DNA from: Acinetobacter phage vB_AbaSI_3
Sequence record: PQ382034.1
Direction: 5' to 3' (one strand)
DNA length: 64,000 nucleotides
A program made the translations under genes and the position numbers. Positions 13,733 through 52,450 of the stretch are shown in pieces. Numbering within the stretch: the first letter of the stretch is position 1; each line of letters begins with the position of its first letter. Under the pieces are notes generated by a model. The model did not search any database. It was not told where the DNA came from and worked only from the letters and a program-made list of their open reading frames with translations.

Positions 13733-13759
13733 TACCTTAGCATTCTTTGAAAAAGTAAA

Positions 13760-13783
13760 GGGACTCATTTGAGTCCCTTTTTT
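13760..13783. terminator. Bidirectional terminator hairpin (gggactc-attt-gagtccc) + T6; overlaps the stop codon of the reverse-strand ORF
   Basis: 7-bp stem with a T-run on the + strand and TTTACTTTTT on the - strand. Confidence 0.55.
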
Positions 13784-15195
13784 GTTTTGTATAATATGTT
13801 ACCACAGTCCCATATTCTCCGTAAACCGTTTGCATAGCAATTTTCAGATTCAGATAGTTCTTCATCAAATATTTCTAACTTGTCTTTAAGGACATGCTTC
13901 ATGTAACCTGAACGATGTTTGAGTTCTCCATCAACAATATAAAAATATCCAGGCTTTGTTACTCCAACTTTCTCCATTCCCATTTGTTCATATACATTTC
14001 CGAAACTCCAGCGTCGATTTGCATATGAAATCAAATTCATTCCTTTAAGAAGTTTTGATGCACCGCCAACTACACAGGTATATTTTTTAGAACATAGTCT
14101 CAATAGTTCCATGTCATATCCTTTATTAAATCGTGGCTTACCAAACGTTGCAACTTGAACAAGTTCGCCGTTATAGAACAGACCTTTAGCTGATGATGCA
14201 CCACATTTGCCTTGTAGATGGTTCTCTTCACAAAATTCATGTGCTACTGAAACAGAGATATCTCTAATGACACATTTTCGAGCATAGATTGTTTTTGATT
14301 TGCCCAATTTGTGTGAAATGACTGATTTCCAAATTTCACGTTTTATTGGATTTCGCCATTCATTTTCAAAAATGTGCAATAAGTGGATACCTTGCTTTTC
14401 GCATTCTTCGGTTTTTGAAATGTGAGAGTTTCTAATGTGTTTATCGTTATCAGAATCTCCTGAACTATGCCAGAAAATGCCATTGTACTCTATTGCGAGC
14501 TTATGCGAAGGAATATACAGATCTAATTCTCTTGGAGGTATTATGTCTCTTCTATTAATATCCACTGTAGCGCCTAGGCTTGTTATAAATTCATATAGTT
14601 CATCTTCTGCAATGGATCTACTTTTGGTACGAACACCATGATCAAGAGAAATCCTATACATGAATGTATAATGGCACCCAATAATTTTAACCAATTCATC
14701 AAACCCATGTGTCTCGTACATTTTAGTGAATTGGGCTTTATCATATACCCAATCTGGTATATGATCTCTGCTTGGTTTTCTCGCCTTTATGGATTTGATG
14801 CCTTCTTTGGTGGTCCCGACATCACCATAACGTTCTCTGCGAGTATCCCAAACCTTTTGATGATAGTCATTTCGGCCTTTGAGAGCTGAAGAGATTTTCT
14901 TTGTCCTTGCCTCAACATCAGTGTTGCTTACTTTCTTTTGCTTGACTTCAGGATCGTTAGCCGAACATTTTCTACTACAATACAATGAACCAATAGGTGC
15001 TGGATTAGAGCATACTTTACATTTAGGCAGTTCTGTTAGACCTAGCATTGCTAGTTTCATAACCGTGCTATCATCAAGACTGGCGTCGTACGCTGAACGA
15101 TCAAACTTATCTGGATTATTCTGCACTAATTTCCGCCAGTTTGGGTTTAGTTTGCCCTTTGCATTCTTAAAAAAATCTATGTCTATCATCATCAT
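13765..15195 (-). CDS. Reverse-strand 476-aa putative DNA endonuclease (DUF559/Vsr-like PD-(D/E)xK core) with an N-terminal Cys cluster; a homing-endonuclease-like insertion between gp23 and gp24
   Basis: ..LDLYIPSHKLAIEYNGIFWHS..DKHIRNSHISKTEECEKQGIHLLHIFENEW matches the Vsr/DUF559 signature (IVDF..LIIE.DG..H..D..R...L...GW.VLRF.NEV). CKVCSNPAPIGSLYCSRKC is a zinc-ribbon-like cluster. It is on the opposite strand to the flanking late genes, at the slot where T4 carries segF. Confidence 0.5.
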   Translation of the reverse strand: MMMIDIDFFKNAKGKLNPNWRKLVQNNPDKFDRSAYDASLDDSTVMKLAMLGLTELPKCKVCSNPAPIGSLYCSRKCSANDPEVKQKKVSNTDVEARTKKISSALKGRNDYHQKVWDTRRERYGDVGTTKEGIKSIKARKPSRDHIPDWVYDKAQFTKMYETHGFDELVKIIGCHYTFMYRISLDHGVRTKSRSIAEDELYEFITSLGATVDINRRDIIPPRELDLYIPSHKLAIEYNGIFWHSSGDSDNDKHIRNSHISKTEECEKQGIHLLHIFENEWRNPIKREIWKSVISHKLGKSKTIYARKCVIRDISVSVAHEFCEENHLQGKCGASSAKGLFYNGELVQVATFGKPRFNKGYDMELLRLCSKKYTCVVGGASKLLKGMNLISYANRRWSFGNVYEQMGMEKVGVTKPGYFYIVDGELKHRSGYMKHVLKDKLEIFDEELSESENCYANGLRRIWDCGNILYKTKKGLK

Positions 15196-16548: not shown

Positions 16549-16583
16549 CATTTCTTACTGAGATAAATTACACATACAAAAAA

Positions 16584-16607
16584 GGGAGCCATTTGGCTCC
16601 CTTTTTT
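16584..16607. terminator. Bidirectional terminator (gggagcc-attt-ggctccc) + T6 between gp24 and hoc
   Basis: 7-bp GC-rich stem; T-run on the + strand and A-run/T-run on the - strand. Confidence 0.55.
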
Positions 16608-16610
16608 GGT

Positions 16611-17696
16611 TTAATATATGATTCCGGCATCCAATGCAGAACGATGAACAATACGCCCATGTCTAGATTCTTGGACATCCACTTCCGGGAAATCTTTAAT
16701 CATTTTAGCTAAAGTTAACAAATGATAGTAGTATGGATTATCTTCCGGAGGTTGTTTCCAATCACCACCAGTTTTTGTAATCTTTTCAATTTCATCCATT
16801 ACCCACCAACCAGCCCAAATATATGCAGAATTACGATGTGGAAGAGGATGAACATATTGACGTTTATCTTCAGGTATAACGATTTCTTTTTCTGAAACAT
16901 TAACCGATGTACTTTTCTTAACAGTGAACGGCAAATAATTTGCATGGGTCGCAGTTAATGTACATTCATGGTTAACTGTACCAACGCTTGAAGCTGTTAC
17001 ATTAATTTTTGCTGTTGTCTCTCCAGTATTCCAAGCATAAGCATAAGTAACACCAGCTGGACCACCTGAGGCAATAGCATCAACAGAATAAACATCACCA
17101 ACTTTAACATCAGAACTATCCGCCAACACGTTAAAATTGACACCAGTCATTGCAGTTTTATTAACAGTGATAGTCAACTCATTAGAATTGATAACTTTAT
17201 CATTATAATCAGTTGCTTTAACTGTAATTTTACATGTAAGTTTTACTGGTCCAGGAGCAGTTGGCGTTTTAGTTGTAGTTGCTGTAGTAGAACCATCAGA
17301 CCAAAGATATGTAATTGTTGCGCCAGCTGGTTGACCTGCAACAGTTGCTGTTGCTGTATAAGATTCACCAAAATTAATAGTAGGTTTCGATGTAGCAATA
17401 GAACCGGTAGTAGTCTGGGTAATTTTAGTTACAGTTAAGTTCGTTGTTGCCGTTTTAACATCATCAGCTTCGCCTTCGACTTTAGTTGTTGATGTAACTT
17501 TAATTACATTTGTGCCTACCTTTGTAGTTACATAATCTAAAGTATTTGTAGTCGACGCTTGAGCAACACCATCGACTTCCCATTTATATTCAACAGTCGA
17601 ACCTTCTGGCGCACCAGTAACAGTTGCAGTAAACTTTTGGGTTTTCCCTTTTTCGACAGAAGGGTTAACTGGGGCTATTTGTAAGGTTGTTGCCAT
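16611..17696 (-). CDS. hoc: Hoc-like outer capsid decoration protein (tandem Ig-like/Big_2 repeats + C-terminal capsid-binding domain)
   Basis: Repeated TATVTGAPEGSTVEYKWEVDG / ATVAGQPAGATITYLWSDGS / ASGGPAGVTYAYAWNTGE Ig-like modules. Its position after gp24 matches the T4 hoc region. Confidence 0.75.
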   Translation of the reverse strand: MATTLQIAPVNPSVEKGKTQKFTATVTGAPEGSTVEYKWEVDGVAQASTTNTLDYVTTKVGTNVIKVTSTTKVEGEADDVKTATTNLTVTKITQTTTGSIATSKPTINFGESYTATATVAGQPAGATITYLWSDGSTTATTTKTPTAPGPVKLTCKITVKATDYNDKVINSNELTITVNKTAMTGVNFNVLADSSDVKVGDVYSVDAIASGGPAGVTYAYAWNTGETTAKINVTASSVGTVNHECTLTATHANYLPFTVKKSTSVNVSEKEIVIPEDKRQYVHPLPHRNSAYIWAGWWVMDEIEKITKTGGDWKQPPEDNPYYYHLLTLAKMIKDFPEVDVQESRHGRIVHRSALDAGIIY

Positions 17697-20011: not shown

Positions 20012-20281
20012 TCAATAATTTTCGTCACAGTCTTCACACATTTTGCGATCAGCTATTTCATTGTAGACACGAATTTCAACTCGTCGCCAATGATCACACT
20101 CTTCACAACAAAACACACGAGTTTCTAAGTTGTCAATAAAGATGACTGAATGCTTTAGATTCGGATCTAAATTCATTTCGATCAAATTTTTCTCTAGCGC
20201 ATTACCCCAAGTTTCTTCTAAACCGTCTAGGCGTTCTGCTAGCCCATCCATTTGGATATCGTCTGGTTGCTCAAATTTCAT
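20012..20281 (-). CDS. Small zinc-ribbon protein (CCEEC..C..C), uvsY.-2-position
   Basis: C-terminal CxxC...CxxC cluster. Overlaps the next ORF start by 11 nt. Confidence 0.45.
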   Translation of the reverse strand: MKFEQPDDIQMDGLAERLDGLEETWGNALEKNLIEMNLDPNLKHSVIFIDNLETRVFCCEECDHWRRVEIRVYNEIADRKMCEDCDENY

Positions 20282-20543
20282 AAGGCTTACTCCAAAATGT
20301 TAAAAATCTATTGCGCATTTCATCATCGCATAAGTTGAAAATAATCAAACAAATCGAATCATGGTCTCCTTCATCAAAGAACTTGACTAGGTCTGTCATA
20401 GATTTTTTAGATCCATCAGAAAATGCTAAACATTTTCCATCTTTATTGCGCAGTATTATTTCTTGGCACCAGTTATGCACCTCAAGTTTAAATATTTTGC
20501 CATTAGCGTTTATTGTTACAATAGATGTAGGTAAAGTAACCAT
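20271..20543 (-). CDS. Hypothetical 90-aa protein
   Basis: ORF in an operon-like array with its neighbours; 1-nt overlap with the upstream ORF. Confidence 0.4.
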   Translation of the reverse strand: MVTLPTSIVTINANGKIFKLEVHNWCQEIILRNKDGKCLAFSDGSKKSMTDLVKFFDEGDHDSICLIIFNLCDDEMRNRFLTFWSKPYEI

Positions 20544-20860
20544 TATTTGTACTCCTTTTCATCAACATAGAATTCTAACTCTTTGGTGACACCATCTACG
20601 GTGACTATGCCACGTTCAAAGTCAAAATCCTTAACAAGTAAACGTGTTTTCCACGGATCAATTCCCCAGCCCCATGGAAATTTACGATATGGGCAAACAT
20701 AGTGGACGTTTGTCAATGTAACGTTATCACCCATTGTAGCAAACTCTAATCCAGGCGCACCGATGAATTGGACTACCCAGCGTTCAGATAAGTTGCGTAC
20801 TGTTGGTTCGTCGCATGTTAGTGTAACTTGTTCTGGACGAAAAGATGATACTTTAGCCAT
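20543..20860 (-). CDS. Hypothetical 105-aa protein (not recognisably UvsY)
   Basis: ORF only; no similarity to T4 UvsY that I can see. Confidence 0.45.
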   Translation of the reverse strand: MAKVSSFRPEQVTLTCDEPTVRNLSERWVVQFIGAPGLEFATMGDNVTLTNVHYVCPYRKFPWGWGIDPWKTRLLVKDFDFERGIVTVDGVTKELEFYVDEKEYK

Positions 20861-20935
20861 AATATTTTACTCATAATTATTAAGATAGAAGCATTATATA
20901 CCACAAAAGGACCATAGTAAATAGTCCTTTGTAGA

Positions 20936-21103
20936 TTATTTTAGCTTTTTATCAGTGTACTTGCAACAAGGTACAAAATGAGAAATATAAACTCCTTGTT
21001 CATGACATGGACATCCACATTTTTTAATAATCTCATTCTGCTGTGCTGTTAGCACAGGTTTCCCAATTTTAAGAATTTTGTTTAGTACTTTTACTAATTT
21101 CAT
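20936..21103 (-). CDS. 55-aa Cys-rich micro-protein (KKCGCPCHE...CCKY)
   Basis: Hand-translated: MKLVKVLNKILKIGKPVLTAQQNEIIKKCGCPCHEQGVYISHFVPCCKYTDKKLK*. Its ATG overlaps the upstream micro-ORF stop (ATGA). Confidence 0.35.
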   Translation of the reverse strand: MKLVKVLNKILKIGKPVLTAQQNEIIKKCGCPCHEQGVYISHFVPCCKYTDKKLK

Positions 21104-21267
21104 AACAATAACTCTGTTTCTAATAGCATGTCATCATTAGATTCAAGTACTGGCATGTCTTGAATGTGCTGCAAGCAGTGTCCAGGATGGACAGGTCCTT
21201 GATCAGTCTCAACTACCAATGCTTCATCAATCGGCATCTTACATACCGAACATATACGTGTTTCCAT
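21100..21267 (-). CDS. 55-aa Cys-rich micro-protein (CSVC...HPGHC)
   Basis: Hand-translated: METRICSVCKMPIDEALVVETDQGPVHPGHCLQHIQDMPVLESNDDMLLETELLL*. GGAG SD 6 nt upstream, late promoter 27 nt upstream. Confidence 0.4.
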   Translation of the reverse strand: METRICSVCKMPIDEALVVETDQGPVHPGHCLQHIQDMPVLESNDDMLLETELLL

Positions 21268-21301: not shown

Positions 21302-21356
21302 GATCTTTGAACAGCTGATATATCAGATACATCTAAACCATCAGTCCCCTATCTTC

Positions 21357-21418
21357 TCCGACCGAATAGATATAATTAGAGCGGTGAACCGGTAGAACCA
21401 TTATACCATCAAAATTTT
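21357..21418 (-). repeat. Copy A of a ~62-bp repeated intergenic element; carries an extended -10 (TGgTATAAT) on the - strand with an upstream MotA-box-like TTTGCTTTA, and a conserved downstream direct repeat GGTTCTACCGGTTCACC
   Basis: 36/36 core identity (atataattagagcggtgaaccggtagaaccattata) plus 12/12 (catcaaaatttt) with copy B at 52312-52373. Confidence 0.6.
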
Positions 21419-21472
21419 ATAAAGCAAATGTGTGCTTATACATAAGGCGTTCAACAGATCAAATTTTGATCA

Positions 21473-21871
21473 TCACTGATGTCTAGCGCCACTAAGCTGT
21501 AGCTTTAGTTGTTCAAGTGTATCCGGGTTATCTAAGATGCTAAACATAACAGTTACAATAATAGCATTATTATCATATTGTGCTTGCACTGACACGCCTA
21601 GTCTAACAATTCTTGGCTCATATGCACGAATAGCTGATGTTATGCTTTTTTCTACTGTACTAACTGTAAGTGGAGACATGTTTTCAAATAAAGCATCGCC
21701 AATTTCACAGCCGAATTCTGGGTCAAATGGACGAGAGCCTTTAGGTGTTGTAATAATTCCTAAAAGAGAATTTTTAACTGCACGTGCGCCAACAGATGCA
21801 GCTACATCCTTATTCCATGCACGTGCCATTTCAGGTGATATGTCTGTATACATATCATTAATATTTTGCAT
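21473..21871 (-). CDS. 25: Baseplate wedge protein gp25
   Basis: Near-collinear with T4 gp25 (NKDVA.S.G.R..KNSLLGIITT.KGSRPFDPEFGC...D.LFENM.PLT..TVE..I.SA.R.YEPRI), same length 132 aa. Confidence 0.9.
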   Translation of the reverse strand: MQNINDMYTDISPEMARAWNKDVAASVGARAVKNSLLGIITTPKGSRPFDPEFGCEIGDALFENMSPLTVSTVEKSITSAIRAYEPRIVRLGVSVQAQYDNNAIIVTVMFSILDNPDTLEQLKLQLSGARHQ

Positions 21872-29184: not shown

Positions 29185-31266
29185 ATGTTAGAAACATTAA
29201 CAGAAGCACAATTAAATGAAGTGCTTGAAACTGAAGGCAATAATTATGATGTGGTAGATTTGATGCCTAAAGCCAAAACACCGCAAATGTTTTTGCTAAA
29301 AGGTGATGGCATTGACAATTTAGTTGTTCGTTTAATGGCACAAAAGGAAGGCGGTGATACACTACGCAATCTTATGCCTAATGATAAAAATGTTGTAGTG
29401 TTTATCATGACACTAAATGATAAAGGTAACTTAGCTGAACTTAAAGGCGGTCTTGGCGCTAATCCGCTTAAAGCACTTACTACAATTTTTGATACTGTTT
29501 ATAGCGCAATCAAGCCATCTGTGGTAGAAACTGTTATGTTCAGATTCCCTGCAAAGAAAATGGCAGGTCAAGAACGCGGTATACGTCGTGTATTGGAACG
29601 CCTTATTCAGGTACGTGGTAAAAATCGTTTTGTAGTTCTATCTGAAATGGCAAGCTTCTCTGCCAAATATTCATACGTAGTTGCACATAAACGAAATTTA
29701 GAATTGACCGACATCCCTGGCGCATCAATTGACACTGAGCGTTATAAGAAAGTTGATACTAAGGTCGGTGAAGTGTATATTGACAATGAAACAGGTAAAG
29801 ACGTATCAAAGGCGGAAGCTATTGCACAGGCTGTTTCTACTGCAGTTAGTAAATTAACTACACAATCAGTTATCGCAAAGTCTAAAATCAGCCGCCGTGA
29901 AGCAATGGCAGCGATGTATTCATCAAGTGAATTTAGTGGCAAACCTGACGCACGCCGCCAAAAATATGATGATAGCCATGCAGTTGTGCCGGCAACAGGC
30001 AATAAAACTCTCATTCAACAAAACATTAACAATATTGATCTAAAGAGTATTGGCCAAACACTGATGGAGTATGAGCATGCAACATGGGAAGATGAAACAA
30101 AATCAAGAATTGCTATTACTCCAATAAGAAATATTGTTGTTCCGATGATCAACGATGTATTCGGTCACCGATCTACGAGCAAAGAAGGCAAAGCAATGGC
30201 TTCTAATATTATTAGAGGCATTGGCACCATCATTGCTGATGCTAACCCTAAAGATTTGCAGTCAATGATGGTAAAAATTTCAGAATTCATCTCGACTACA
30301 AGTTTTGGTGAACTTGACAAAACTGGAAGAATTAACTTCGCTAGAGGTATAATTTTTGGATTGTTAAATGGACCAATTGGTGGCAGAATACGTATTGCAT
30401 ACGAAGATGATGAGGCTGAACATAAGATTCGTCGTCAATACACTGAAGATCAGGTTGAAGCCATTAAAGCCTATACAGGTTCAGATTTTTCTGACATTAA
30501 TGGATTCCTTATTGGCCACTATGGCACATACCCAGGCCTAGAAGAAACTATTGCACATTTAGATGAAGCATTCAAAAATGGGACCACTCTAGAACGCGGA
30601 ACAATATTATACCGCGGACAAAGTGTTAAGTATGGCCAAATGAAATCAATTATGGATACAAAAATGATGTATTTTAGAAATTTTGTATCTACATCGTTAT
30701 ATCCAGTGATTTATGGTGGATTCGCAAATGCAGTTGCAAATATTGAACCTACTGCACAAGATCAAACTCATTTCACATCTGTAGATTTATCAAAATCTAC
30801 ATCATATACAAGTGATGCACATGATGCGATGAATGCTGGTACAATCGAAGATTCCAATTATAGCGTATCAGTGGCTATGGTGATCAAAGGAGCTGATAAA
30901 ATCAACGTTATCGTTCCTGGTAATATGTCTTCATATCCAAATGAATGCGAAGTAATTTTACCTCGTGGCACAATACTTAAAATTAATAAAGTTGTTGGAG
31001 AATCATTTGACTTCGGAGACTCTAATAACTCTATGCTAATGGAAACAACAGTAGTTGGTCCTGATCAGATCGATGAAAATACAGAAATGTATGATGGTGA
31101 CCTATTTTTAAGTGAAGGGCGATTAGAAGTCATAAAACCGAGTATTGGCGCATTTTATAATAATGAAGTTATAAACGAAGCCGTTATCCCTAATAATGAT
31201 GATGCAACATCCATATTATTATCATTGATTGATTTTACTGGTATGCCGCAAAAGTTCATTGATTAA
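29185..31266 (+). CDS. alt: Alt-like packaged ADP-ribosyltransferase (R-S-ExE class)
   Basis: 693 aa after gp54, as for T4 alt (682 aa). The C-terminal domain has YRGQSV (Arg), FVSTSLYP (STS) and NECEVILPRG (ExE). Confidence 0.75.
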   Translation: MLETLTEAQLNEVLETEGNNYDVVDLMPKAKTPQMFLLKGDGIDNLVVRLMAQKEGGDTLRNLMPNDKNVVVFIMTLNDKGNLAELKGGLGANPLKALTTIFDTVYSAIKPSVVETVMFRFPAKKMAGQERGIRRVLERLIQVRGKNRFVVLSEMASFSAKYSYVVAHKRNLELTDIPGASIDTERYKKVDTKVGEVYIDNETGKDVSKAEAIAQAVSTAVSKLTTQSVIAKSKISRREAMAAMYSSSEFSGKPDARRQKYDDSHAVVPATGNKTLIQQNINNIDLKSIGQTLMEYEHATWEDETKSRIAITPIRNIVVPMINDVFGHRSTSKEGKAMASNIIRGIGTIIADANPKDLQSMMVKISEFISTTSFGELDKTGRINFARGIIFGLLNGPIGGRIRIAYEDDEAEHKIRRQYTEDQVEAIKAYTGSDFSDINGFLIGHYGTYPGLEETIAHLDEAFKNGTTLERGTILYRGQSVKYGQMKSIMDTKMMYFRNFVSTSLYPVIYGGFANAVANIEPTAQDQTHFTSVDLSKSTSYTSDAHDAMNAGTIEDSNYSVSVAMVIKGADKINVIVPGNMSSYPNECEVILPRGTILKINKVVGESFDFGDSNNSMLMETTVVGPDQIDENTEMYDGDLFLSEGRLEVIKPSIGAFYNNEVINEAVIPNNDDATSILLSLIDFTGMPQKFID

Positions 31267-31275
31267 ACCGCAAAA

Positions 31276-31296
31276 AGGAGCCAAATGGCTCCTTTT
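31276..31296. terminator. Terminator hairpin (aggagcc-aaat-ggctcct) + TTTT after alt
   Basis: 7-bp stem with a T-run; 10 nt after the stop. Confidence 0.55.
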
Positions 31297-31299
31297 GTG

Positions 31300-31482
31300 T
31301 TATAACGTGTGTGCTATTCGATTGACTTCAATACCATTAACATTTTCATATGTTATTAGACCGTCTATAAACTTATCGCGTTTAAATGTGCTGTCAAAAT
31401 TAATCAGCGTCGTAGATGTAGATATTGCTACTTCTTGTCCTATGCATATTTTGCTATGGATTTCTAAAAGAACTTTGTACAT
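31300..31482 (-). CDS. Possible small ORF (60 aa) downstream of the ligase gene
   Basis: ORF only. Its 5' end overlaps the ligase stop by 1 nt and its 3' end ends 4 nt from the alt terminator hairpin. Confidence 0.25.
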   Translation of the reverse strand: MYKVLLEIHSKICIGQEVAISTSTTLINFDSTFKRDKFIDGLITYENVNGIEVNRIAHTL

Positions 31483-51174: not shown

Positions 51175-52257
51175 TCAGAACCCGTTAAGGTCCTTTAGCA
51201 ATTTTGTCAATTGATTTTTGACAAGATATGGATAGATTTTGCCGCGAGGAGCAGGTTTGTATTCTTTATAATGATTGATGATAGATTCACGAATATCGTC
51301 TCGAATATAATCAAAATCGATTAAAATACGATTACGTTTGAAACGATGGAATTGCAAATCTGCGATTTGCTTTGCCATTGCCATGGCATCAGTTCTATAT
51401 TGTTCAAGAATTTCACCATCTTCATCTTCAATTTGAACACCTTGGAGTTTGAGTAATTTGTGACATTCAGCCACACCTGTTTTTTTATTTTTAGCCTTTT
51501 TCATGATTTCTTCAGTTAAAGCTTCATAAACTTCATCATCCGATTTGCCGACTAATTTTGTAACAAATGCTGCAGTTGTAGATGGAGTGCGTTCGTCTTC
51601 TTCATAATTTAACCAGAAGTCGCCACGAACTTTGATAGATGCTACACAGTCTTTGCGATCGCCTTTGAGAACTTTTGTTAAACAATCTTCTTGTGGCGAG
51701 CCAGTTTTGACTTTAACAAATTTTTTCTGAATAGGAGAATATTGATCTACGTCTTCAAGTTTATGTAACTGTGTAAAGTCGCCATCTGATGAAATGATAC
51801 GAACTTTATACCCTTGTTTTGATAAATAAGATGACAAGACTGCAATACAATCATCGGCCTCACAATGGCGAACATCAACTACAACCCAAGGCATGTTGTC
51901 TTTAAGTTCTTGAATTACAATACCAAGTGCATTAAAATAACCATCCCAGTCAAATGATTCTGCTTCCTTAGCTGCGTCACGTGCTATCGCACGGTTTCGT
52001 TTGTAATAATCTTCTTCTTGACGACGCCAATAGCCATAACGTGCATTATCAATAGCGATAATAACATGGTCATACCCATCAGATTTAAATTTCAATGCAT
52101 TATGTTTAATTGTCGACAAAACTAACTGACGAACAATTGGAACAGTGAACTTCATACCTGGTTCATATGTAACTGCCACAGTGGCTAAAGCGATTTGTGA
52201 CAAATCGATAAGTAAAGCACCTGGCTTATCCTCACCGTAAAAATGGTCTAAACTCAT
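51175..52257 (-). CDS. rnh: RNase H / 5'-3' flap exonuclease
   Basis: MSLDHFYGEDKPGALLIDLSQIALATV...IAIDNARYGYWRRQ vs T4 RNase H MDLEMMLDEDYKEGICLIDFSQIALSTA...LCIDNAKSGYWRRD. Start set at the second ATG (52257; SD AAGGA), not the track's 52287. Confidence 0.85.
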   Translation of the reverse strand: MSLDHFYGEDKPGALLIDLSQIALATVAVTYEPGMKFTVPIVRQLVLSTIKHNALKFKSDGYDHVIIAIDNARYGYWRRQEEDYYKRNRAIARDAAKEAESFDWDGYFNALGIVIQELKDNMPWVVVDVRHCEADDCIAVLSSYLSKQGYKVRIISSDGDFTQLHKLEDVDQYSPIQKKFVKVKTGSPQEDCLTKVLKGDRKDCVASIKVRGDFWLNYEEDERTPSTTAAFVTKLVGKSDDEVYEALTEEIMKKAKNKKTGVAECHKLLKLQGVQIEDEDGEILEQYRTDAMAMAKQIADLQFHRFKRNRILIDFDYIRDDIRESIINHYKEYKPAPRGKIYPYLVKNQLTKLLKDLNGF

Positions 52258-52311
52258 ACTACTATCCTTCTGATAAATCAAATACATCTAAAACATTCAA
52301 ATTCAGTCTAT

Positions 52312-52373
52312 TCCGACCAAAGAAATATAATTAGAGCGGTGAACCGGTAGAACCATTATAACATCAAAATTTT
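52312..52373 (-). repeat. Copy B of the ~62-bp repeated intergenic element; - strand TTTACA-18-TGtTATAAT promoter facing rnh
   Basis: See copy A; identical 36-nt core. Confidence 0.6.
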
Positions 52374-52409
52374 GAGTTGTAAATGTTGCTTTAATTCAAG
52401 TGTTTAATA

Positions 52410-52450
52410 AATATACATAGAATCCAGAGCTCAGCTTTTAATAAATATAT
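52410..52450 (+). promoter_or_regulatory. Two late-promoter-like AATAAATATA boxes upstream of gp34
   Basis: ttaataaatatac and ttaataaatatat. These are imperfect TATAAATA variants. Confidence 0.3.

Follow-up and report, generated by a model that had tools for sequence, protein, structure and literature searches.

Bacteriophage T4 is the textbook case of replication origins that are primed by transcripts. Two of its origins, oriF and oriG, each span about 100 bp and combine a middle promoter with an AT-rich unwinding element downstream of it, and the transcript serves as an R-loop primer; the unwinding element requires no specific sequence, and the T4 origins, of which five active ones are counted, share no motif (PMC3016281). 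Kreuzer and Alberts (1985), to go by the title as cited in the same review, described T4 origins as recombination hot spots. The review names as open questions whether R-loops are used at origins beyond oriF and oriG, and how origin usage is controlled (PMC3016281). A different type of repeated promoter in T4-like phages is represented by the PeSL elements and their Mot-box variant, the PmSLs, which combine a stem-loop with a promoter, occur as near-identical copies within a genome and undergo recombinational exchange (Arbiol et al. 2010; Comeau et al. 2014). There are about 50 PeSLs to a genome; they are found next to ORFans and indels where the genome is hyperplastic, and a ribosome-binding site and an ATG stand at their 3' end (PMC4122927, PMC2839356). 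Here we describe a repeated intergenic element of Acinetobacter phage vB_AbaSI_3, analysed in a stretch of 64,000 nucleotides from sequence record PQ382034.1 (hereafter the window). It belongs to a family of very probable promoter modules that occupies five sites in complete genomes of related phages and has a positional counterpart in T4 oriF, and we tentatively consider that these modules may be origin-type promoters.

A probable promoter element present at five sites per genome

In the window the element occurs as copy A, between the stop codon of gene 25 (gp25) and an open reading frame (ORF) resembling uvsY.-2, and as copy B, between the divergent gene 34 and rnh. An earlier note, made from the letters of the window, had reported that a 36-nt and a 12-nt block are identical between 21357-21418 and 52312-52373. 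Both blocks are indeed exact, ATATAATTAGAGCGGTGAACCGGTAGAACCATTATA at 21370-21405 and 52325-52360 and CATCAAAATTTT at 21407-21418 and 52362-52373, as is TCCGACC at 21357-21363 and 52312-52318. Estimated by us from base composition, the chance expectation for an exact 36-nt repeat in 64 kb is about 1e-11. In a repeat search of the window the pair formed by copies A and B was the top direct repeat (80 nt, 85%), while the remaining repeats were each at most 39 nt long with 64-87% identity. The element had been put at about 62 bp; a profile search with nhmmer, for which the profile was built from 13 copies out of four phage lineages, shows instead that homology spans about 160 nt, on the minus strand in both copies (Table 1). 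The same search found no third copy in the 64-kb window.

The window is about 98-99.8% identical to members of the genus Lazarusvirus, T4-like phages of Acinetobacter baumannii such as AC4 and Apostate. The description as a two-copy repeat holds for the window but not for complete genomes: a genome-wide search, which the earlier note had proposed, returned exactly five cores, the 36-nt core TATAATGGTTCTACCGGTTCACCGCTCTAATTATAT being present exactly five times in the complete Apostate genome. By BLAST, a 131-nt query matched five to six places in each of 51 phage records. The sixth place in KARL-1 is an artefact, as its linear record begins inside a copy (NC_049441, position 1), and the sixth place in PhaR5 (OL763420), where the match runs to the record end, is likely to be one as well; the check covered these two of the records with a sixth place, among which are also AC4, Maestro and AB-Navy-v2. 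The AbTZA1 record (NC_049445) also starts inside a copy at position 1. Such breaks, which likely stem from assemblies breaking at the repeat, inflate the BLAST place count to six.

Three of the five Apostate copies lead into genes. The two plus-strand copies, at the srd/tk.4 and gp3/gp2 sites, oppose their neighbour genes, all of which are on the minus strand, and no ORF lies downstream of them; as far as can be read from the sequence, they should make only short non-coding RNA. At the srd site the promoter is followed, after about 100-150 nt, by a terminator-like hairpin that is shared with the convergent gene. The alignment of the window with Apostate has no breakpoints at the copies.

Anatomy of the module

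Read in the direction of the -10, the module comprises a distal AAAATTTGATC box, an inverted MotA-like pair (TAAAGCAC..GTGCTTTA), a proximal AAAATTTTGATGt box and the -10 itself, which is followed by about 30 invariant nt, a semi-conserved TTCGGTCGGAGAAGATAG block and an AT-rich TTTAGATGTAT.. block. In two copies GC-rich palindromes are inserted between the core and the AT-rich block. The right half of the distal box of copy A, AAAATTTGATC, recurs some 40 bp ahead of the -10 in Acj9, in Ac42 and in all but one of the five Apostate copies; copy B has no such distal box. The inverted pair AAGCA..TGCTT is likewise present at four of the five copies and weak or absent in copy B. Its two boxes form a 9-bp stem, and the scan marks the pair of the 15.9-kb copy as terminator-like. 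Purine-rich blocks related to the semi-conserved one of copy A are present in Ac42, Acj9 and a metagenomic relative.

The promoter call of the earlier note is borne out by features on the minus strand of both window copies. As it had stated, each reads TGnTATAAT, in the form of TGGTATAAT in copy A and TGTTATAAT in copy B, the latter being shared by the Apostate copies that lie outside the window, and in copy A a MotA-like box (TTTGCTTTA) is found 14 nt upstream. The MotA box reads ATTTGCTTTA in copy A, TGCTTTA in the 15.9-kb and 79.1-kb copies of Apostate and TGCTTTG in the 46.4-kb copy. Copy B has no MotA-like box and carries instead the -35 hexamer TTTACA; its presence had been recognised correctly, but the promoter scan gives a spacing of 17 nt rather than 18. 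The conserved part lies mostly 3' of the -10, at the head of transcripts directed towards the uvsY.-2 cluster and rnh, again in agreement with the earlier note. The genes for MotA and AsiA are annotated in Apostate, AbTZA1, KARL-1 and Acj9. Judged from these sequence features, the element is very probably a working promoter module, and each module would launch a transcript with a common, non-coding and unstructured first segment of about 30-50 nt, followed by an AT-rich tract. In copies A and B alike, transcription was taken to start 7 nt past the -10, by analogy with the T4 promoter P34i (mapped start 153011). From these predicted starts the downstream ATG is about 126 nt away in copy A and about 91 nt away in copy B, with the rnh ATG at 52257 taken from the Apostate annotation.

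Table 1. Coordinates of the modules, their parts and related features
Sequence	Feature	Position	Strand	Basis or remark
Window	Copy A, whole element	21323..21488	-	nhmmer E 1.9e-37; site and orientation shared with Apostate, AbTZA1, Acj9, Ac42
Window	Copy A, distal box GATCAAATTTTGATC, 15-bp palindrome directly after gp25 stop	21457..21471	.	read from sequence
Window	Copy A, MotA-like box TTTGCTTTA (21420-21428) and inverted partner (21431-21439)	21420..21439	-	TGCTTTA 14 bp from -10
Window	Copy A, extended -10 TGGTATAAT	21400..21408	-	same letters as T4 PuvsY -10
Window	Copy A, invariant initially transcribed block GGTTCTACCGGTTCACCGCTCTAATTATAT	21370..21399	-	exact in 5/5 Apostate copies; predicted start ~21393
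Window	Copy A, semi-conserved purine-rich block CTATTCGGTCGGAGAAGATAG	21349..21369	-	alignment
Window	Copy A, AT-rich block TTTAGATGTATCTGATATATCAG	21316..21340	-	inside least stable stretch of the element
Window	Copy B, whole element	52279..52439	-	nhmmer E 7.9e-32; site and orientation shared with Apostate, AbTZA1, Acj9
Window	Copy B, sigma70-type promoter TTTACA-17 nt-TGtTATAAT	52355..52383	-	11/12 consensus matches plus TG (promoter scan)
Window	Copy B, invariant initially transcribed block	52325..52354	-	predicted start ~52348
Window	Copy B, semi-conserved block TTCTTTGGTCGGAATAGAC	52306..52324	-	alignment
Window	Copy B, AT-rich block TTTTAGATGTATTTGATTTATCAG, just ahead of rnh ribosome-binding site	52270..52294	-	alignment, stability
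Apostate	Copy in spacer upstream of srd (srd/tk.4)	15.9 kb	+	
Apostate	Copy within split gene 43 region	46.4 kb	-	
Apostate	Copy between genes 3 and 2 (gp3/gp2)	79.1 kb	+	
Apostate	Copy corresponding to copy A	117.9 kb	-	
Apostate	Copy corresponding to copy B	149.0 kb	-	
Apostate	GC-rich palindromes	L001 16024-16060, 46330-46370		
AbTZA1	GC-rich palindromes	copies at 36.2 kb and record start		
Acj9 (HM004124)	Modules	L063 23540-23760	+	
Acj9 (HM004124)	Modules	L022 10890-11090	-	
Acj9 (HM004124)	Modules	L064 4530-4600	+	
T4 (AF158101)	srd/modA spacer promoter	~11.87 kb (L019 3843-3958)	+	
T4 (AF158101)	Gene 3/2 spacer promoter	~76.0 kb (L018 1945-2062)	+	
Window	Early-type promoters	39768-39740, 38694-38666, 34208-34180, 20921-20893, 15250-15222, others	-	TTTAC-N17-TATAAT

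The earlier note had read the shared block as an operator or translational leader of two genes. As two of the five genome copies face no gene and end at terminators, and as the block precedes the start codons by about 91 and 126 nt in the window copies, such a role is not supported. RegB-like processing was discarded since GGAG is not kept among the copies, and the ACCGGT palindrome on which the note had remarked is reduced to ACGGT in three of the five AbTZA1 copies. Nor does the proposal of bidirectional firing stand: the plus-strand hexamer has neither a -35 nor a TG, does not appear in the list of the promoter scan and reads TAAATT in Hadassahvirus, so that a second promoter on the opposite strand was rejected. 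A micro-ORF starting from the ATG within TATAATG was dismissed likewise because a 1-nt deletion in three of the five AbTZA1 copies breaks the frame, which argues that the shared block is non-coding. At the level of RNA structure, no Rfam match at gathering score was obtained in the window or in 50 kb of Apostate, and the block folds no better than shuffled sequence (z = +0.84 and +0.34 in the two window copies, from -0.75 to +1.41 in 14 lineage variants); a structured leader or riboswitch-like RNA was therefore dropped. A hairpin of a C-rich arm, an AT loop and a G-rich arm, which can be drawn by eye in Lazarusvirus, Ac42 and Acj9, is broken in some paralogues and has no energetic support.

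Conserved sites and concerted evolution of the copies

AbTZA1, a member of the genus Hadassahvirus, carries five copies at the five sites of Apostate with equal relative orientations, and all of them share genus-specific changes, with AAATTTAT replacing AATTATAT and TTTGG replacing TTCGG. The five sites are also all filled in Acj9 (Acajnonavirus), whose gp25 is 72% identical, some of them by tandem pairs; the transcribed blocks are very unlike the Lazarusvirus block and come in two versions within the genome. The gene 3/2 and gene 25 sites of Acj9 each hold two tandem modules. One version of its block is found at both plus-strand (antisense) sites and the other mainly at minus-strand sites, with a variant of the latter as second tandem module at the plus-strand gene 3/2 site. 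Ac42 has one diverged copy, between gene 25 and uvsY, while the gene 25 site holds no more than an ordinary MotA-type promoter in phage 133 and yet another transcribed block in a metagenomic relative. In other words, the five sites are kept in three genera, and the transcribed sequence changes by genus, in parallel across all copies.

Gene conversion between copies can be seen directly in KARL-1, in which the srd copy bears the downstream segment of the 46.4-kb copy of Apostate. This, in combination with the age and stability of the sites and a sequence made uniform genome by genome, indicates concerted evolution: on the evidence of these alignments, the copies are homogenised within genomes by gene conversion.

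Counterparts of the modules in T4

The positions of T4 origins were taken from the GenBank record (AF158101) and the review PMC3016281 only. The record places oriF at 115321, in (-) direction, between gene 25 and uvsY, and oriG at 152947, in (-) direction, within gene 34 and antisense to it. Located directly after gene 25 on the minus strand, copy A matches PuvsY/oriF in both position and direction, and the likeness extends to the promoter letters: T4 reads AATGCTTCA-N13-TGGTATAAT, and the pattern TGCTT(C/T)A-N13/14-TGGTATAAT covers both T4 and copy A. The two systems differ in that the box stands at 14 bp here and not at 12 +/- 1 bp, that copy B has a -35, and that uvsY itself is absent; searching with Ac42 UvsY by tblastn, we could not recognise uvsY in the Apostate and AbTZA1 genomes (E > 0.3). 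The module is still found after gene 25 although uvsY is absent. The gene following the promoter at this site is uvsY in T4, Ac42 and phage 133, and uvsY.-2 here (minus-strand ORFs, window 20012-21267). A DprA-like recombination mediator, annotated as orf040 in Apostate and gp056 in AbTZA1, may replace UvsY.

Copy B fires leftwards like P34i, 2.1 kb away, but it lies in the rnh/34 spacer, whereas P34i/oriG is located 2.1 kb inside gene 34. The predicted non-coding transcripts of some copies recall the P34i primer RNA, which is antisense to gene 34, and at oriF and oriG, as here, the promoter is followed by AT-rich DNA within about 100 bp. The other three copies come no closer to T4 origins than kilobases or lack a T4 counterpart. 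In contrast to the T4 origins with their lack of a common motif (PMC3016281), an exact core of 36-60 nt is present at five sites in these phages.

A weak profile match led to three promoters in T4 and close relatives that share TGGTATAATGRRTCTAAGTCC..CCAWT, namely PuvsY and two plus-strand promoters, one in the gene 3/2 spacer and one in the srd/modA spacer. Both plus-strand promoters are of the consensus MotA type, antisense to all neighbours and kept in hundreds of T-even genomes; they share the first ~20 transcribed nt with PuvsY/oriF and do not appear in the 2010 table of identified T4 middle promoters. In site and orientation the T4 trio corresponds to three of the five Acinetobacter-phage copies, and it has the same composition of MotA box, extended -10 and common initially transcribed block. 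The transcribed block is however unrelated (GRRTCTAAGTCC..CCAWT versus GGTTCTACCGGTTCACC...), and there are three members rather than five. Our literature search found no description of the five-copy family or of the T4 trio.

Spacing and stability of the DNA

On the circularly permuted Apostate genome the five copies are separated by 30.5, 32.7, 38.9, 31.1 and 31.7 kb. The coefficient of variation of 0.09 has a probability of 1.5e-4 under random placement, and that of the minimum gap is 3e-5. The gaps are 36.2, 29.7, 31.9, 38.3 and 32.1 kb in AbTZA1 and approximately 37.7, 31.3, 37.4, 32.4 and 31.1 kb in Acj9. A purely gene-regulatory role offers no reason for such even spacing.

Within the genome, 40-bp windows from +60 to +120 of the modules fall in the least stable 4-7%. 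In all five copies the DNA 40-110 bp downstream, taken as its least stable 40- and 80-mers, is less stable than 89-100% of the downstream regions of 44 control promoters.

Other promoters and hairpins of these phages

The GC-rich palindromes that follow the core, GCTGCTGCGCAGCAGC and CGGCGCTGTGCGCCG, are confined to the copies at the srd site and in the gene 43 region and occur in neither window copy; related hairpins (TGCGCAGC) are situated close to the 3' end of gene 2. At three places in the window, 16574-16621, 31256-31303 and 13757-13785, there are terminator-like hairpins that are bidirectional and almost identical (AAAAAGGGAGCCATTTGGCTCCCTTTTTT), and in Apostate and AbTZA1 the srd-site transcript ends at a hairpin that resembles them.

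Ordinary promoters of these phages resemble the modules at their start. In AbTZA1 such a promoter at ~14042 (+), ahead of a small ORF, starts TATAATGGTTCTACC and then diverges, and Apostate 5682 (-) reads TATAATGGTTCTATC, so the element shares its first 7-9 transcribed nt with generic promoters of these phages. A second and larger promoter family is of the early type, TTTAC-N17-TATAAT, with about 44 sites in Apostate and the conserved start region AGYYCTATCAAAT. Many of its members can pair the spacer with positions +1 to +10 through an inverted repeat, whose sequence varies by promoter while complementarity is kept. This family looks like the PeSL equivalent of this phage.

Possible origin-type promoters and alternative explanations

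The reading that we favour, if tentatively and from comparative analysis, is that the modules may be origin-type promoters launching R-loop primer RNAs. The transcript would stay annealed to its template as an R-loop and be trimmed by RNase H, and the trimmed RNA would then prime leading-strand DNA synthesis, as at T4 oriF and oriG. The five modules would be the replication origins of the phage, and recombination at origins would account for the modules staying identical. This reading draws on the position of copy A at the oriF site, the non-coding antisense members, the persistence of the module after the loss of uvsY, transcripts whose lack of structure makes them compatible with hybrid formation, the AT-rich downstream tract, the five evenly spaced sites and gene conversion. 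Counted in its favour as well are the leftward direction that copy B has in common with P34i, the T4 trio at three of the five sites and the five active origins with which T4 is credited. The proposed mechanism would also resemble that of ColE1 RNA II, where a promoter-proximal transcript forms a persistent hybrid and is cut by RNase H to yield the primer; RNA II is however long and highly structured and serves one origin per replicon, whereas the RNA here is predicted to be unstructured and the module occurs five times.

Several points weigh against origin-type promoters. Since the T4 unwinding element is free of sequence requirements, an invariant block is not predicted by the origin model, which requires gene conversion or an extra factor to accommodate it. 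Plasmid screens in T4 are not known to have yielded any origin besides oriF and oriG. According to the T4 record, oriA and oriE lie 3-5 kb from the two plus-strand T4 family members and have the opposite direction, and P34i/oriG, tried as a sequence member of the T4 family, has no detectable relation to it. At the level of the promoter, the spacer between MotA-like box and -10 is 14 bp in all box-bearing copies, outside the T4 rule by which the box (a/t)(a/t)(a/t)TGCTTtA lies 12 +/- 1 bp from the -10 (PMC2988021); other MotA-like sites of the same genome have spacers of 11-13 bp, and copy B is boxless. The even spacing was spotted post hoc, in three genera that share gene order and are not independent trials. 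Finally, other long intergenic spacers are as unstable as the AT-rich tract of the modules, so the test for an unwinding element does not discriminate.

Alternatively, the modules could be composite terminator/promoter cassettes of the PeSL/PmSL kind with a purely transcriptional function. The palindrome would end incoming transcripts and the promoter would start middle-mode transcription anew, for the uvsY.-2 cluster, rnh and small ORFs alike, with the long shared stretch as a gene-conversion footprint and the antisense copies as leftovers or insulators. We regard this account, the chief rival of the origin-type reading, as somewhat doubtful. A stem-loop flagged as terminator-like does stand directly upstream of the promoter, Mot-box PmSLs are known in T4-like phages and PeSLs flank gene 43 in RB49 and phi1 (PMC4122927, PMC2839356), and one copy here lies within the split gene 43 region; the three copies that lead into genes, the directly visible gene conversion and TATAATGGTTCTA, which also starts an ordinary early promoter, point in the same direction. 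Yet the modules depart from PeSLs in copy number, in location and in the Shine-Dalgarno sequence and ATG at the end: there are five copies at fixed core-genome sites in three genera, free of alignment breakpoints between the window and Apostate, with a long invariant transcribed block that has no ribosome-binding site and with two antisense copies that have no ORF. A cassette would leave unexplained both the even spacing and the upkeep of orphan antisense promoters at the same two sites from T4 to the Acinetobacter phages.

An RNA family with a common 5' end would widen the idea of the earlier note to two small RNAs of about 100-150 nt and three mRNA leaders, whose unstructured 5' sequence binds a phage or host factor or pairs with targets. 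Such a block, transcribed, predicted to be single-stranded and non-coding by its frame-breaking 1-nt indel, would suit this role, as would the srd-site copy with its promoter, ~100-150 nt and terminator-like hairpin, and the parallel change of all copies within a genus fits one trans-acting partner. We nevertheless consider the family quite improbable. It has neither an Rfam match nor a conserved structure, and the transcribed sequence is nearly wholly different among Lazarusvirus, Acj9, Ac42, the metagenomic relative and T4, leaving no conserved seed, with two versions at different sites in Acj9 itself. The hairpin at the srd copy mainly serves the gene on the opposite strand, its T-run being on the minus strand, and RNA genes give no expectation of even spacing. 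Even spacing would be in keeping with a site acting at the level of DNA and unrelated to priming, such as a recombination hot spot or the binding site of a phage or host protein that organises the chromosome, with the promoter incidental. The palindromic GATCAAA-N-TTTGATC and the paired AAAATTTTGAT boxes beside the MotA-like palindrome, the GGTTC direct repeats 9 bp apart in Lazarusvirus and Ac42, and the evidence for gene conversion would all agree with it. But GGTTC occurs once in Acj9 and is missing from the metagenomic relative and T4, and the only feature invariant across all lineages is the promoter itself, which makes it highly improbable in our view.

The origin-type reading can be taken further: the five modules might be the complete origin set of the Twarogvirinae phages, one sequence kept identical by origin-associated gene conversion, and the two plus-strand promoters of T4 might likewise be primer promoters. 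We hold this extension to be rather unlikely. If it were true, these phages would be the first T4-like group with one recognisable sequence common to every origin, and the srd/modA (~11.9 kb) and gp3/gp2 (~76.0 kb) promoters of T4 would send forks rightwards into what has been scored as oriA and oriE.

An oriF-like module that occurs at five evenly spaced sites, all having one exact core, would make the definition of origins accessible by sequence, in phages that are in therapeutic use against Acinetobacter baumannii. Promoter, shared transcribed block and AT-rich tract could be compared in parallel at five sites, and the finding points to three concrete promoters in T4 itself. Should the origin-type reading fail, there would still be orphan antisense promoters to explain, an ancient family whose members evolve in concert within each genome.

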